64,000 nucleotides of DNA, taken from positions 1 through 64,000 of the IMG/VR virus record IMGVR_UViG_3300020047_007062. One strand, given 5' to 3'. Positions within the stretch are counted from its first letter, which is position 1; each line of letters starts with the position of its first letter. The stretch comes from a virus. Lineage: Duplodnaviria; Caudoviricetes. The translations under genes were made by a program, and so were the position numbers. This document shows positions 6,867 to 55,277 of this stretch, in pieces. The notes beneath the pieces were generated by a model. The model had not been told where the DNA came from, ran no database searches, and worked only from the letters and a program-made list of their open reading frames with translations.

Positions 6867-7556
6867 ATGACCCGCGAAGAATTACCCATATTCAAGGCAT
6901 CCTGCTATTCCATTGGCGACCTGATGGGCATCAAGGGGTTGGGCAAAACGGGACAGACCTGTGTCAAGACATGGTACTTGTCCAAACTATACGACCGCAA
7001 ACCCGACTTCTTTTCCAAATACGTTGAAAAGGGATTGGCCACCGAACAAGCGGGGATAGAACTCTATTCAGCCATACAAAACGAGGGCGTATTGCTCCAA
7101 AAGAACACCCAATGGTTTGAGGACGATTGGCTCCGAGGGACACCCGACCTGATTACCGCAGACATGGTGATTGACATCAAGTGTTCGTGGAACCTCTTTA
7201 CATTCCCCTATTTTGACAAGGAATTACCCAACTCCGACTACTACTGGCAGTTACAGGGTTACATGGCCCTCACGGGGCTAAAAAAGGCCGCCATTGCCTA
7301 TTGTTTGATTGACACCCCAAAGCCCCTTATCCAACAGGAACTTAAAAAGCTATTCTACCAAAGTGGGGGACGGCCCGAGGATTGGACGCCCGAAACGTAT
7401 GCAGACTTGGAAGTTAATTACCGATTTGACGACATCCCCGAAAGGGACAGGATCAGGGTATTCCCCGTGGAGAGGAATGAGGCTGACATTGCCCGTATCC
7501 GAACCCGTGTGGAGGAAGCGAGGGATTATTTGAAGTCGGTGGTTATTCCTGCTTAA
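6867..7556 (+). CDS. YqaJ / lambda-exonuclease-family PD-(D/E)xK nuclease
   Basis: G..TE, GTPDL..DMVIDIKCSW, YYWQLQGYM. Confidence 0.85.
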   Translation: MTREELPIFKASCYSIGDLMGIKGLGKTGQTCVKTWYLSKLYDRKPDFFSKYVEKGLATEQAGIELYSAIQNEGVLLQKNTQWFEDDWLRGTPDLITADMVIDIKCSWNLFTFPYFDKELPNSDYYWQLQGYMALTGLKKAAIAYCLIDTPKPLIQQELKKLFYQSGGRPEDWTPETYADLEVNYRFDDIPERDRIRVFPVERNEADIARIRTRVEEARDYLKSVVIPA

Positions 7557-48703: not shown

Positions 48704-48774
48704 CGCAAGTGTTATTTTGGTGATTATTAGGTTTTTGACTTTGTGAAGTTGCGCCTATCTGCGAGTTATACGCA
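48704..48774 (-). other. Truncated attC-like element, family A, copy 1
   Basis: Shares cgcaagtgtta and a 23/29 box with 54325-54395 at identical spacing. Confidence 0.6.
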
Positions 48775-48978
48775 ATTTGGAAACCGTTCCACAAATGCTT
48801 TCAGTATCTTAGGTAAATCAATTTCATAAATCATTGTGTACTCTTGTTCACCTTGTTCTTTTTGAAACTTCTGTGTTTTCCACCATTTCCATATTTCAAC
48901 ATTATCAGGAAAACTGCGTATAACATCGGTTTTGTGCAATGCCGAGTTCTGTGCTTCATTCAAATTTTGTTCTTTCAT
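48766..48978 (-). CDS. Small AT-rich gene in an attC-like cassette
   Basis: Starts inside the upstream hairpin loop; stop codon lies in the TGCGTATAAC core. Confidence 0.6.
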   Translation of the reverse strand: MKEQNLNEAQNSALHKTDVIRSFPDNVEIWKWWKTQKFQKEQGEQEYTMIYEIDLPKILKAFVERFPNCV

Positions 48979-49049
48979 TTTACTTTAGTTTTAAATTAAA
49001 CATTTGTGCATTTTAATTCGGCACTGCACAAAGCCGAGAACCGTTACCC
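48915..49049 (-). other. Complete attC-like palindrome
   Basis: AAC/GTT box, asymmetric unpaired spacer, 23-bp stem, AT-rich loop. Confidence 0.65.
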
Positions 49050-49520
49050 AATTACCCAAAATACCACATACATCATTACGGCAAGCCCGAAGAAGGTTAC
49101 CCTCCCGCCAACCGACAAATCCCACATGGCTGTCCCCTGTCCACTCGGTTCCGACCACCATCCCCTCCTATAAACCATAGGATTTAACCAATTCCTGAAT
49201 GTGTACAACATCCCATCGTGGAAGAAGGGGAACGACAATATCGCAAACACCCCATGCCACAACATCCAATCGGGGAAAAAGAGGACAGCCCAAACAAGTC
49301 CCCTCGTGGCCATAAACCATGTGTGTTCATTGGTGACACAATCAACAAACCAATTACTGCCCTCCCACAACCCCGCCCAATGGTCAGCCGCCTTCCCTTC
49401 GGGGGATTGCGTTAGGTTACGGGAATGGGGATTGTATAGTTTGTGGTATAGGATGGCCTCCGCGATGGCTGATACCAACGCGAATAGGATAAAGATGAAT
49501 ATTTTGTACTCCCCGATCAT
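49044..49520 (-). CDS. Multi-TM membrane protein
   Basis: Hydrophobic, Trp-rich; stop TAA within the GGGTAAC box. Confidence 0.7.
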   Translation of the reverse strand: MIGEYKIFIFILFALVSAIAEAILYHKLYNPHSRNLTQSPEGKAADHWAGLWEGSNWFVDCVTNEHTWFMATRGLVWAVLFFPDWMLWHGVFAILSFPFFHDGMLYTFRNWLNPMVYRRGWWSEPSGQGTAMWDLSVGGRVTFFGLAVMMYVVFWVIG

Positions 49521-50522: not shown

Positions 50523-50881
50523 TTCCCACCTCCCTTCTTAACAACCTTCCCCGTCAGGTCAACGTATTGTGTATTGTACCACCTTTCAAACGGATAAAGA
50601 ATAGACTTATTGCTGCGCTTAGAATCTGTTAGACAGTTAAATTGTGCACTCAGATTCTTCTTCACATTCTTCGCACTGGTCAGCACTTCCGACGTTGACA
50701 ACACCTCCCCGTTCTTGCCGATAAGCACCACGCGGAAGCCTGTCATTTTACCTTTGATTTTGGCCGGACGAATCTCAATCCGTTGGCCCTTCTTTTTTGT
50801 GTTTTTTGCCATCTCTTTTTTTCGCAAATATTCGTCAATACCCAACCTCGCCCCACCTCCATTAACATATTTTGGGGCCAC
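50519..50881 (-). CDS. Basic protein with YegP/DUF1508-like region
   Basis: FRVVLIGKNGEVLSTSEVLTS..N motif; start uncertain (possibly MAKNT). Confidence 0.5.
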   Translation of the reverse strand: MAPKYVNGGGARLGIDEYLRKKEMAKNTKKKGQRIEIRPAKIKGKMTGFRVVLIGKNGEVLSTSEVLTSAKNVKKNLSAQFNCLTDSKRSNKSILYPFERWYNTQYVDLTGKVVKKGGGK

Positions 50882-50908
50882 CGCCTAAAATGCCTTTATT
50901 TTGCACTC

Positions 50909-52948
50909 ATGGATTTCCGTACCGTCACGGTCACAACAATCACCAAAGATTCCACGTCGGGGATAATAACATTCAGCACCCCCATCTCCGCAAACCCCGA
51001 ACGGAACGGGATAGCCTTCGCCTGCAAACCCACCGATTACATCGGCCTTGACGACCAACGCCAATACATCGAGGTATCCAACGGGTACAGGGGTATCAAA
51101 TTCTCCGTCCACAACGAGATCACCATCACGGGTGACCCCGCCTCCCCCTACGCGGAGGTCGGGGAGGACTACACCTCCGAGGACTATAAGGATAAGATAG
51201 GGGACATCTACCAATACCTCGTGACATCAGTTGCCGAGGGTTGTTGTTGCCCCGAAATAGTCACCATTGGAAACGTGGTCATGGTAGATACCTATGCCGA
51301 ACTCCCATCCACGGGAATAGCAGGAACATTGTACGTGGTTCTGACGGGTGACGAGGAGGGGACATACTATTGGGACACATCACTATCAACTCCCGATTAC
51401 CTCCCATTTTTCAATGACGTTTTAATGTATGACACCTACGCCGACTTCCCCCCAACGGGAACGGCGGGTAAACTGTATCTTGATAAAGATCAATATTCCA
51501 ATGCTGCATCCCGTCTCTATTGGTGGGATGACGAGGCATCCACGCCTGACTACGTTCCCGTAACCGCTGACGACCCGTCCAAATTACCATTGGCGGGGGG
51601 TTCCATGAGTGGCCCGATCAATGAGTTTCAGGGGGCTAACATTGCGTCGGCAGGGACAACAGACATAGGCGCAGCAACGGGCAACCTTATATACGTAACG
51701 GGAACCACGACCATCACGGCGCTCGGAACCATCCAAGCGGGGACAGAGAGGGTTGTCATTTTCACAGGTATCCTGACCCTGACGTATAACGCCGTTTCGT
51801 TGCTTTTGCCGGGCGCAGCCAACATAACCACGGCGGCAAATGACATAGCCACCTTCCGTTCCCTCGGTTCGGGGAATTGGATATGCACATCGTATCAGAG
51901 GGCAAATGGTACGGCTGTTGTCGGCCCCTACCTACCATTAGCGGGCGGCTCCATGACGGGAGCAATTAACGAGGCACAGGGAGCCAATATCGCATCATCG
52001 GGGACGACGGATATAGGGGCGGCAACGGGTAATTATGTAACCATAACGGGGACGACCACTATTACCTCTTTTGGAACCGTCCAAGCGGGGACGCAGAGGG
52101 TGCTTGCTTTTACTGGTGTCCTAACGCTAACCCACAGCCTTGCGATCAGACTTCCAACTAACGCCGATATTGACACGGTAGCAGGTGACTATTGTTGTAT
52201 GATGTCGTTAGGGTCAGGCGATTGGGTATGTCTTTGGTACAAAAGAGCCAAGGGGCATATTTTCACTCCTGACATTAACATGAACGGGACTGACTCACTT
52301 GATACAACTCAAATACAGTTTGCCCCCACAACGTCCGACGTTTCGCAATTTAATATGATAACAGGGACCGACGTTACCGCCCCTGTGGATGGTGACGTAT
52401 TTGCGTCCACCCAAAATACAATAGCCAATCAAATTTCGGGAACTACCCTCCATGTAGTTGAGGGATTCGATACACAAACCGCATCGGTAACGGTCAACAC
52501 AACTGCCGCCGAAACAACTCTTTTAACGGGGATCGGCGACTTTGGCGCCAACTTCTTCACAGCGGGGAAAACACTTAACATATTTGCATCAGGCAGGATT
52601 ACCAATACGGGAACGCCAACCATCAGGATTCGTTTCTACCTTGATGCCGTGGCCCACATAGACACCACCGCCGTAACTATGGGAACCATATCAGGGACAG
52701 GACTATGGATATTTCAGGGGTGGGTCACATGCAGGTCAACGGGCGCGGGGGGAACCGCTGCCGCACAAGGCATATTCAACTATTGGGCATCCACATCGTC
52801 CCAACGTACCGCTTCTTCACCAATGACCCCCACCTCCGCCATTGACACAACCGTAGCTCTTACTCCCAACCTAACCGTGACGTGGGGTACGTCAAGTTTA
52901 TCCAATAGCATTACTTGTGACATCTTTGAAATATTTATCGTGAAATAA
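50909..52948 (+). CDS. Tail fibre-like structural protein with internal duplications
   Basis: Gly/Thr/Ala-rich; two 116-aa IAS.GTTDIGAATG repeats and two short TYA..P.TG repeats. Confidence 0.65.
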   Translation: MDFRTVTVTTITKDSTSGIITFSTPISANPERNGIAFACKPTDYIGLDDQRQYIEVSNGYRGIKFSVHNEITITGDPASPYAEVGEDYTSEDYKDKIGDIYQYLVTSVAEGCCCPEIVTIGNVVMVDTYAELPSTGIAGTLYVVLTGDEEGTYYWDTSLSTPDYLPFFNDVLMYDTYADFPPTGTAGKLYLDKDQYSNAASRLYWWDDEASTPDYVPVTADDPSKLPLAGGSMSGPINEFQGANIASAGTTDIGAATGNLIYVTGTTTITALGTIQAGTERVVIFTGILTLTYNAVSLLLPGAANITTAANDIATFRSLGSGNWICTSYQRANGTAVVGPYLPLAGGSMTGAINEAQGANIASSGTTDIGAATGNYVTITGTTTITSFGTVQAGTQRVLAFTGVLTLTHSLAIRLPTNADIDTVAGDYCCMMSLGSGDWVCLWYKRAKGHIFTPDINMNGTDSLDTTQIQFAPTTSDVSQFNMITGTDVTAPVDGDVFASTQNTIANQISGTTLHVVEGFDTQTASVTVNTTAAETTLLTGIGDFGANFFTAGKTLNIFASGRITNTGTPTIRIRFYLDAVAHIDTTAVTMGTISGTGLWIFQGWVTCRSTGAGGTAAAQGIFNYWASTSSQRTASSPMTPTSAIDTTVALTPNLTVTWGTSSLSNSITCDIFEIFIVK

Positions 52949-53763: not shown

Positions 53764-54315
53764 ATGATAACTGACGTTAAAGTTCACTTTTTCAACGAGC
53801 CACAAGACATGCACGCCATCCTCGATAACGCCTGCACGGTTCAGTACGACAACGGTATCTACACCCAAATTGCCCCCTCGGACACCGCCTTCGCCTATGA
53901 ATGGTACAACGTTCAGGTTGATACCACCACGGGGGCGCCCACCTTCATCCCATTGGGGAATACCTATAACCTGAACCTGAATGGGGACGGGGTTAAGGCA
54001 GCCATCGGGGGGAACGGGGAGAAGTTGGTTGCCTTGAAGGTCAAGCACAAGGAAACGGGCTTTACATGGGCGATCAAGATACCGACTTTGGTCAACCTAT
54101 CGGATTGGCAGGAAGACGGGTTTACGGTGTGGCCCATGCCGCAGCCGGGCATTTTGTCGTTTACCGATTGGATGAACCAATATGTACAACAAGCCAACTT
54201 CACGAGGCACATAAGGGGCGCTCACTTCATTGGGGGCAAGCGGGGGGACTTGAATGTGGATGGGTTAAACAATACTGCCGACCTGTTATTGCTAATGGCG
54301 GATTTCGGGCAGTAG
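53764..54315 (+). CDS. Protein with a C-terminal dockerin/EF-hand-like Ca-binding motif
   Basis: GDLNVDGLNNTADLLLL. Confidence 0.6.
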   Translation: MITDVKVHFFNEPQDMHAILDNACTVQYDNGIYTQIAPSDTAFAYEWYNVQVDTTTGAPTFIPLGNTYNLNLNGDGVKAAIGGNGEKLVALKVKHKETGFTWAIKIPTLVNLSDWQEDGFTVWPMPQPGILSFTDWMNQYVQQANFTRHIRGAHFIGGKRGDLNVDGLNNTADLLLLMADFGQ

Positions 54316-54395
54316 GTGGATAGGCGCAAGTGTTAGTGTATTGATTTACAGTTGTTTTGTCATATTAAGTTGCGTGTATCCGCGAGTTGTGTGCA
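54316..54395 (-). other. Truncated attC-like element, family A, copy 2
   Basis: ggataggcgcaa/ttgcgtgtatcc arms; core GTTGTGTGCA at 54386-54395. Confidence 0.6.
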
Positions 54396-54398
54396 AGG

Positions 54399-54614
54399 CT
54401 ACTTGTCCTTACTTTCAAGTGGTCGGACGGGAATTGATTTACTTTTCATAACACCATCCCAATCACCCCATTCAACACCTCCACGATATTCAATAAAAAG
54501 ACTACCATCTTCATCTACTCTGCCAATTTTTTCTACAATATGTTTAGCAAACATTTCTTTTAGCTGTTCAACTTGGTAATCAGAAAATACCCTTAAAGTA
54601 ATTTGGTTTGCCAT
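54399..54614 (-). CDS. Small AT-rich gene in an attC-like cassette
   Basis: Lone minus-strand gene bracketed by complementary 10-bp cores. Confidence 0.6.
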   Translation of the reverse strand: MANQITLRVFSDYQVEQLKEMFAKHIVEKIGRVDEDGSLFIEYRGGVEWGDWDGVMKSKSIPVRPLESKDK

Positions 54615-54635
54615 CTTATTTTATTTTACACGCCC

Positions 54636-54773
54636 TGCACACAACAAAAGGCTTGCTGCAAGTAGGGCTTGACGTTAATAATTTGGCAGACGAATAATTT
54701 GTGAACTTATGTTCCTTGCTCGGCGGTAGTGCTGCCAATTCCCTACCTGCAAAGCAAGCCCCGAACGTTACGA
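54636..54773. other. Complete attC-like palindrome with extrahelical bases
   Basis: AAC(54643-45)/GTT(54767-69), 4/6-nt spacer, 18-bp stem with 2 bulged bases. Confidence 0.7.
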
Positions 54774-54878
54774 TCAATATCTTTATGTCCCGCAAATATT
54801 TAGTTGGGTTGGGGCTGATCGGTTCACAATTAACGTCTTTTGGGTTTTCTGACTACTTGCAAACATTTTCTTTGCATC

Positions 54879-55277
54879 ATGCCAATAGATTACAAGAAAT
54901 ACCCCGCTAATTGGAAGTCAGAAATCAGACCGGCTATCCTAAAGAGGGCCATGTATTGTTGTGAGTTCTGTAATGTGCCTAATCACAAATATATTTTACG
55001 AGGCACTTGGAACGGTATAGAGTGCTACCAAGATGATGATGGTTCCATTTACGACGCCTCAACAAGTGAGAGGATAGGGGATGATTACGTTGGCGAGGTA
55101 CACCCAACAAACAAATTCATTCAGGTAGTTTTGACTATCGCCCACCTTGACCACAACGTTGAGAATAATGATTTTAACAACTTGAAGGCGCTGTGTCAGC
55201 GATGCCATAATCGGCACGATGTTCATTTCAGAAAGGCCAACAGGGACAGGAATAAAGGCACTATATCCATGTTTTAA
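54879..55277 (+). CDS. HNH-family endonuclease
   Basis: CEFC..VLTIAHLDH..NLKALCQRCHNRHD. Confidence 0.8.
   Translation: MPIDYKKYPANWKSEIRPAILKRAMYCCEFCNVPNHKYILRGTWNGIECYQDDDGSIYDASTSERIGDDYVGEVHPTNKFIQVVLTIAHLDHNVENNDFNNLKALCQRCHNRHDVHFRKANRDRNKGTISMF

Follow-up and report, generated by a model that had tools for sequence, protein, structure and literature searches.

The locus at positions 54316-54773 of this phage DNA raises the question of whether a lone antisense ORF, bracketed by two short complementary boxes, is a gene cassette of an integron-like system, as the original prediction proposed from the letters alone. We followed this question in the window, the whole stretch of 64,000 nucleotides in which the locus lies, and in the viral, bacterial and metagenomic sequences that share its elements. 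Integrons are the textbook gene-capture device. The reading that we favour, and regard as probably correct, is that the locus (site 2) is a cassette made of the ORF P0001 and an attC-like hairpin of about 121 nt, seated on terminal site B of an integron-like recombination system native to Bacteroidota.

The boxes lie where they were predicted on either side of P0001 (54399-54614, minus strand, 71 aa). One is GTTGTGTGCA on the plus strand at 54386-54395, which on the gene strand is the box that reads ...CACAAC 3' of the ORF, and the other is TGCACACAAC on the plus strand at 54636-54645, which reads GTTGTGTGCA on the gene strand just 5' of the ORF. Next to the second box lies the attC-like hairpin, body A (54646-54766, minus strand), located by a match to the covariance model R1 described below, by folding and by a hairpin scanner; its spacers measure 6 and 4 nt, its arms 20 and 18 nt and its loop 73 nt. 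The predicted palindrome with 4/6-nt spacers and two extrahelical bases was recovered in it, with arms at 54650-54667 (18 nt) and 54741-54760 (20 nt), two bases unpaired, and spacers AAAA (4 nt) and CCGAAC (6 nt). The outer box GTTACGATC (plus strand, 54767-54775), whose counterpart at the second locus of this kind (site 1) is GTTACCCAAT, marks the point at which the constant framework of the phage resumes. At the other end, terminal site B (54318-54385, minus strand) abuts the stop codon of the convergent gene 53764-54315 and reads, on the gene strand, AAC-tcgcg-GATACACGCAAC, then a 40-nt A-rich loop, then TTGCGCCTATCC. Read on the plus strand, with boundaries marked by a slash, site 2 consists of B, /GTT-box, inverted cargo, box-AAC, hairpin and /GTTAC with the constant framework. 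This is the order of an integron (terminal site, box, cargo, box, hairpin, framework) with the cargo inverted. Both sites are islands of 30-35% GC in surroundings of 50-56% (genome, 48.5%). Perfect 10-nt inverted repeats no more than 300 nt apart are expected by chance about 18 times per 64 kb, so the box repeat by itself proves nothing; the significance of the locus comes from the homology breakpoints, the matches to the covariance model, the pairing of boxes across arrays and the low-GC islands.

The genes around site 2 deserve a brief description. The gene 53764-54315 (plus strand), the last before the site, encodes 183 aa without a family assignment and has a dockerin-like DLNVDGxxNxxD motif at its end. 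The structural block ends with this gene; the replication block (DUF6291 initiator, DnaB) begins after a free-standing HNH endonuclease gene (phrog_1571; 54879-55277, plus strand) that adjoins the cassette. An X6 contig links 54850 to 55273 via AACCA, the HNH gene being absent from this natural variant; the gene resembles a homing endonuclease that moves on its own. That this neighbour homes the cassette was considered as the main cause and rejected: the HNH gene is present or absent independently, and site 1 has none. Further upstream, a 199-nt direct repeat (51585-52131, 71% identical, spacing 348 nt) within the 721-aa ORF 50783-52948, which belongs to no family, probably encodes a domain repeated within a tail or fibre protein.

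Comparison with natural relatives places the points of exchange at the boxes. The window and contig L017 share a block of 87% DNA identity that runs exactly from 54646 to 54386, box to box, and then stops. The homology starts at one box and ends at the other, similarity is confined within them, and the hairpins that flank the common cargo are unrelated in sequence. At site 1, the block 48766-48920 is common to 10 viral contigs, in at least four upstream and at least six downstream contexts, and the site 1 hairpin is found fused in frame to two unrelated cargos (L014 and L015). Hairpin bodies and cargos assort independently, and the block ends of boxed cargos and of hairpin bodies all fall in TAAC or (T)GTTA.

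Parts of the segment 53600-55600 occur in 20 runs from 9 studies of wastewater, sludge and freshwater. We aligned contigs from four studies to the window; they show the presence of variants, not their frequencies, and stretches without contig cover (such as 54400-54545 in X1) are no evidence of absence. On the left flank, contigs X3 rec8 and X6 rec24 follow the tail-side gene and B as far as 54388, where they diverge, one left-flank variant running on as GTTAGTGGCA, a different box and cargo. On the right flank, contigs of X1, X4 and X6 begin to match only at 54764-54766, or else end at 54771. Because the flank matches break at 54388 and at 54764-54771, the cargo together with body A (54389-54766, minus strand) is the variable, replaceable unit, and B and the HNH-side flank, which the contigs of the four studies keep, are a constant framework. 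The crossover nucleotide is ambiguous, since GTT and AAC are common to all copies. No cassette circles, empty site or recombination event were seen in the contigs of the four studies, and no relatives of the phage were detected by blastn against cultured phages or, in viral contigs, through P0004 or the GroEL-like protein.

The hairpins of sites 1 and 2 belong to one family, as had been proposed. The covariance model R1 was built from an alignment of 27 hairpins with a family length of about 124 nt, comprising 22 pairs, of which 16 show compensatory changes, invariant AAC and TGTT and two conserved G.T pairs. In the window it has exactly two matches, one at site 1 (48915-49052, minus strand, 115 bits, E = 1e-22) and one at site 2 (54636-54776, minus strand, 52 bits, E = 4e-9), and nothing more up to E = 1 with filters off. 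Building such a model and scanning Bacteroidota phages and hosts with it had been suggested with the original prediction, and the scan yielded arrays of 13-17 hairpins in phages as well as matches in 101 of the 151 genomes of one bacterial order. The phage genome G001 (32.5 kb, CheckV 100%) has 17 hairpins in 8.2 kb, all in one orientation and mostly of 122-127 nt, and the cultured Flavobacterium phage vB_FspS_lillamy9-1 has 13, in its early arm. The hairpin scanner, which is aligner-based and requires AAC..GTT ends, reported 0-4 hairpins in shuffled sequence, and the real counts are far above those of shuffles and of other boundary triplets. Phage cargos include DNA methyltransferases, a regulator and small ORFans.

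The arrays obey a simple pairing rule. In every array, the GTT plus 7 nt that follow one hairpin are the reverse complement of the 7 nt plus AAC that follow the next cargo. Cognate boxes agree at 6.12 (G001), 6.83 (lillamy) and 6.5 (G003) of 7 positions, as against 3.2-3.3 of 7 for the two boxes of one hairpin and 2.9-3.2 of 7 for non-cognate pairs, and in host arrays 26/29 consecutive pairs match at 9-10 of 10. The co-variation of the cores with the cargo, predicted from two sites, holds in about 60 consecutive phage and host pairs. Together with the exact homology breakpoints at the boxes and the replacement of the unit in natural variants, this bears out the proposal of an integron-like cassette. 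Nor do the elements behave as a known repeat or terminator family devoid of core complementarity: their boxes pair across arrays and they correspond to no Rfam family, Rfam giving nothing at gathering threshold in the window except a tRNA and only chance miRNA-like matches on the G001 array.

Site 1 lies 5.6 kb from site 2, and each has one full hairpin and one terminal site. The site 1 cargo (48766-48920, minus strand) is bounded by GTTATACGCA and TGCGTATAAC and codes in frame for the C-terminal 50 aa of P0002, the ATG and first 18 codons of which are contained in the hairpin loop, in frame through the box. The cargo ORFs of the two sites are unrelated, with no BLASTP alignment between them, as had been noted before. 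The element common to both sites was also found as described: the window has exactly two copies of the 11-mer CGCAAGTGTTA, at 48704 and 54325, each with a box 42 nt further on, and the two boxes agree at 23/29 positions. The core AAGTTGCGNNTATCNGCGAGTT, for which 0.01 matches would be expected in the window, has 2 there, and just those 2 in the 73.6-kb genome. The whole element is about 70-72 nt long and recurs at 48704-48775, with copies about 70% identical; as a terminal site its second copy, B-prime, occupies 48704-48765 (minus strand), upstream of the phage GroEL-like gene. One part of the prediction has to be revised here. The downstream element is not another attC-like site but an array-terminal, attI-like site, which in hosts lies beside a recombinase gene. 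Searches with the terminal-site core pattern gave 0 matches in viral contigs and 9 in metagenome contigs, all of them chance matches in unrelated high-GC DNA. The chaperonin gene itself (phrog_5725, PF00118; 47054-48613, minus strand) shares its strand with the site 1 terminal element and follows immediately downstream of it, and about 20 nt before its ATG there is a TAAATTTG box similar to the Bacteroidota -7 promoter motif.

The bacterial matches give the terminal site its meaning. R1 matches six contigs of one bacterial MAG and 5/5 genomes of its family, the 101/151 genomes of the order already mentioned and 45/121 genomes of the phylum. We infer that the R1-rich order is Flavobacteriales, since the cultured phages infect Flavobacterium and Polaribacter. 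The host matches cluster as arrays of a single orientation, with cargos that include type ISP, type III and type I/IIG restriction-modification systems, OLD-family nuclease, SIR2-STALD, GmrSD, Fic and secreted proteins. Adjoining the arrays is a tyrosine recombinase of 345 aa (PF13495 and PF00589), with 55-70% identity among copies taken from four genomes. Its score on NF040815 is 213.6 bits, and it falls just short of the XerA/integron-integrase model; it scores 192 bits on TIGR02249 (cut-off 265), where it aligns in two stretches that skip profile positions ~180-238, without the IntI insert. A canonical IntI was present in 1/151 genomes, and that genome has no hairpins; because the threshold of the IntI model mixes Xer paralogues, we used adjacency rather than cross-tabulation with element presence.

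The terminal-site motif AAC-N5-[GT]ATANNCGNNAC occurs 7 times in 786 kb against 0.37 expected. Two of these are B and B-prime; in hosts, the remaining matches mark array ends or are 150-260 nt away from the stop codon of a recombinase gene; four more were found in further flanks. The terminal site stands between the recombinase stop codon and the first cassette, 100-260 nt past the stop, and the gene for the enzyme and the model strand of the elements are convergent. The 3' half of B-prime, ACTTGCGTTTATTT, nearly equals the recombinase-adjacent site of host genome G019 (L048). Given the motif common to B, B-prime and the recombinase-adjacent host sites, element B is, judged by its sequence, an array-terminal, attI-like site, of which the phage has two with one cassette each. 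In 20 further recombinase flanks, hairpins or a terminal site were found within 3.5 kb of the 3' end in 12, always in the same orientation; 5 of the 8 negative loci have less than 400 nt of contig left on the 3' side. Counting all loci, including the first six, 18/26 have elements or a terminal site within 3.5 kb, against a chance level of about 1-2%, so that the linkage to tyrosine recombinases that had been put forward as a check is present in the hosts. The description of the system as dispersed and integrase-less stands for the phages, which have no enzyme, and fails for the Bacteroidota chromosomes, where arrays are linked to the Xer/IntI-like recombinase. No tyrosine recombinase was found in the phage under study (77% complete) or in three complete array-bearing phages.

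The host assemblies have peculiarities of their own. In L055, L059, L061-L063, L065, L067, L071 and L072, draft contigs end 60-400 nt from the 3' end of the recombinase gene; repeated hairpins appear to break assemblies, so arrays would be under-counted in MAGs. The label of one MAG (L032/G006, CAMART010000020.1), titled Chitinophaga pinensis, looks wrong: it has 2.9 Mb and about 31-33% GC in the parts read, whereas the genome of that species has about 9 Mb and 45% GC.

Could these hairpins act as RNA rather than as DNA? They might be regulatory RNA or transcription elements that lie between early genes (processing signal, stabiliser, terminator or promoter) at which relaxed or microhomology recombination, of the kind associated with PeSLs, shuffles genes, selection then keeping recombinants with intact boxes. 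In phages, the conserved G.U pairs lie on the sense strand and the P0002 ATG and first codons lie in the hairpin loop, in frame through the box. G001 has Rad52/Erf-like, NinB, resolvase-like and SSB genes, and the array phages have no integrase; with annealing proteins of the Rad52/Erf type, NinB and junction resolvases in array phages, shuffling is possible without a site-specific enzyme, and PeSL-mediated shuffling and mini-circles are documented (PMC2839356; PMC4122927). However, the window and L017 are dissimilar outside the boxes, yet exchange is exact at both ends, and homologous exchange does not predict cargo-specific complementary boxes or account for arrays linked to a tyrosine recombinase and a terminal site. 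The strand bias of the fold also speaks against it. The family fold is asymmetric, with spacers of 5-6 nt on one side and 1-2 nt on the other and conserved G.T pairs. In 5 phages it is the favoured (model) strand that carries the ORFs, and the ORFs of at least 100 aa in host arrays lie mostly on the opposite strand (about 35, against about 9 on the same strand). The asymmetry follows the element and not the gene, which fits a DNA signal, like the strand choice of attC, and is no property of an mRNA. A simple terminator was discarded, no T-run or U-tract following the stems. We consider the RNA reading unlikely as a whole, and favour the cassette reading. The phage hairpin precedes the ORF and can supply its start codon, so that an added role in expression is likely.

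More doubtful still is a selfish origin, in which a transposase or HUH enzyme spreads the hairpins as miniature repeats of the MITE, REP or ERIC kind that simply accumulate between genes, the boxes being features of the target site. The uniform hairpin length of about 124 nt with 20-nt inverted arms, the high copy number within each of two thirds of the order's genomes and the frequent breaking of assemblies at hairpins would all suit such repeats. Against this, the flanks of a hairpin are neither direct repeats, as a target duplication would leave, nor mutually complementary; box complementarity spans neighbouring cargos rather than one hairpin, which insertion of a repeat cannot yield; all copies of an array share one orientation; and the linked gene is a tyrosine recombinase, with no transposase. 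Least probable of all, in our judgement, is that site 2 is an inverton, in which an invertase would use the 10-nt inverted repeats to flip the antisense ORF. A 261-nt segment between inverted repeats, holding an ORF antisense to both neighbours, would look just like that, but the hairpin and the terminal site share the strand of the ORF, which gives the module a single orientation as a unit; joints that change strand did not occur among the contigs, the only material for this comparison; site 1 has the same build with all genes co-directional; and no invertase gene was found.

A mechanism for the cassette reading can be outlined. One DNA strand of the hairpin would fold, with AAC(G) at one end pairing to (T)GTT at the other, and the adjoining 7-10 nt that are specific to the cargo would pair too; the flanking boxes would be complementary because in the free circular cassette they make up one stem. 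Strand exchange at GTT would be the work of a tyrosine recombinase. Recombination would accordingly be enzymatic and single-stranded, and as the phage has no enzyme of its own, the host 345-aa Xer/IntI-like protein is the presumptive agent, which would act on phage DNA during infection. Phages may thereby gain, lose and swap small accessory genes, and hosts may bank defence genes. Several points weigh against this reading. Crossovers occur at both boxes of a hairpin; the phages have no tyrosine recombinase but do have annealing proteins and resolvases; the only family member assayed by experiment, P12002L_attC1, did not recombine with IntI1 (PMC9892861); and the start codons and N-terminal coding stretches within some phage hairpins suggest a role in expression as well.

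A broader model, which we advance tentatively and hold to be slightly less than even in probability, is that Bacteroidota and their phages share a second, independently built 'integron', in which hosts bank defence genes and recombinase-less phages borrow the host enzyme to trade counter-defence and accessory genes, the phage studied here offering two landing pads. Its components, of which we are no surer, would be an Xer-like recombinase without the IntI domain, a terminal site past its stop codon, folded sites of 124 nt and cargo-specific 10-nt boxes. If this model is true, a large phylum, Bacteroidota, has its own version of the integron with a different enzyme, and the system runs both in bacteria, with restriction and defence cassettes, and in viruses, with DNA methyltransferase and small-ORF cassettes. 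It would give integrase-less phages a route for fast turnover of accessory genes, allow new defence and anti-defence genes to be sought among the cassettes, and provide a new pair of recombinase and site for genetic tools in Flavobacteria. Cultured material is at hand in lillamy9-1 with its host Flavobacterium LMO9 and in Polaribacter phage P12002L.

The system resembles integrons and CALINs (attC clusters without an integrase) in several respects. In both, cassette arrays are split by imperfect hairpins of 60-140 nt that start in ...AAC and end in GTT..., with unpaired spacers and extra-helical bases; the site is split, the box after one hairpin pairing with the box after the next cargo; and a tyrosine recombinase from the Xer/IntI branch adjoins the terminal site. 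The site 2 hairpin shows the architecture of attC (R''-spacer-L''...L'-spacer-R', imperfect, with extra-helical bases), and, by the box rule and the breakpoints, the cassette boundary falls at G/TT, with the 5' box pairing to its own R''. An IntI with its specific extra domain, scoring above the TIGR02249 cut-off, is found neither in the phage nor in the host enzyme. There are also differences. The recombinase described here has no IntI-specific insert and stays below the IntI cut-offs; it is convergent with the array and the site lies past its stop codon, whereas integron intI is divergent, with attI and Pc at its 5' side; the paired boxes extend over 10-13 nt instead of 7; breakpoints fall at both boxes, as opposed to exchange at R' only in integron attC; and the phage ORF is inverted, so that the hairpin precedes it and can give the start codon.

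Two Xer-dependent systems are related in principle. The pdif (Xer) modules of Acinetobacter plasmids are gene modules bounded by inversely oriented Xer-type recombinase sites, akin to the present cassettes, and CTX phage, which exploits Xer, integrates as a folded single strand. The pdif sites are double-stranded XerC/XerD sites of 28 bp and fixed sequence, without a 124-nt hairpin and without cargo-specific boxes. REP/BIME, ERIC and Correia repeats resemble the present elements as abundant imperfect palindromes of about 30-150 nt that lie between genes and are co-transcribed with their neighbours, but box pairing along arrays, a terminal site and a linked tyrosine recombinase are all missing from them. 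The nearest phage analogue are the PeSL cassettes of T4-type phages, in which short conserved stem-loops stand between small non-essential genes (Arbiol 2010, PMC2839356; Comeau 2014, PMC4122927). PeSLs likewise mark borders of gene gain, loss and replacement, with mini-circles proposed as vehicles, but theirs are a sigma-70 promoter plus terminator and homologous exchange between near-identical copies, without cargo-specific complementary boxes, recombinase linkage or arrays in host chromosomes.

Integrons and CALINs have been surveyed repeatedly (Cury 2016, PMC4889954; Neron 2022, PMC9024848; Qi 2023, PMC9892861). Such surveys find next to no integrons in Bacteroidetes. The IntegronFinder 2.0 survey reported only isolated integrons in this group (PMC9024848), and 17 CALINs have been reported in phages (Qi 2023, PMC9892861). 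Sedentary chromosomal integrons have defence-rich cargos, as do the present host arrays (bioRxiv 10.1101/2024.07.02.601686). One hairpin of the present family is already in the literature: Polaribacter phage P12002L_attC1, called attC by HattCI, was the only one of six sites that failed with IntI1 in E. coli (PMC9892861), and it corresponds to a short-form R1 match at L045 30002-30062. The integron-like system is common in Bacteroidota and their phages, with a single passing mention found in print. The statement, made before any search, that no description was known stands for the family, which full-text searches of open-access papers for attC- or integron-like elements in Flavobacterium or Bacteroidota phages found undescribed, and falls for this one hairpin, attC1 of P12002L. 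Nilsson 2020, which describes lillamy9-1, does not mention the repeats.

The cargo of site 2 is itself an orphan. P0001 matches no Pfam or PHROG family and has two relatives only among 5.8 billion proteins, both in unrelated contexts, and none in viral contigs; in the Atlas it has its own record alone, with a low-confidence model. The closer relative (96%) lies on L017, a contig of 1.65 kb, amid unrelated small genes. The other, 70% identical (L016, 5001-6523), ends a row of genes with a 4-nt overlap with the stop of a convergent 435-aa phage-type integrase; at its locus on this 38.5-kb contig, the hairpin scanner detected no hairpins.

Some further details of the arrays may be recorded. In G001 (L018, ~7300-7320; L009, 3190-3250), two successive cargos share a box and abut with no hairpin in between, in the form GCGTATAA-gtgct-GTTATACGC. 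The arrangement resembles a junction that has collapsed, and the recombination reaction may have left it as a footprint. In a host contig (L038 9459-9596, G006:C15), a 'solo' hairpin has two boxes that are complementary to each other (TGCCCATAAC / GTTATGGGCT), which is how a cargo-less site or the joint of a free cassette would be expected to look. Finally, the hairpin-bearing early arm of lillamy9-1 (L022, MN812212.1, 2256-8479) contains GenBank 'hypothetical proteins' of 96-129 nt (gp006, gp008, gp011, gp016 and gp022), tiny ORFs that may be annotation artefacts over hairpins.
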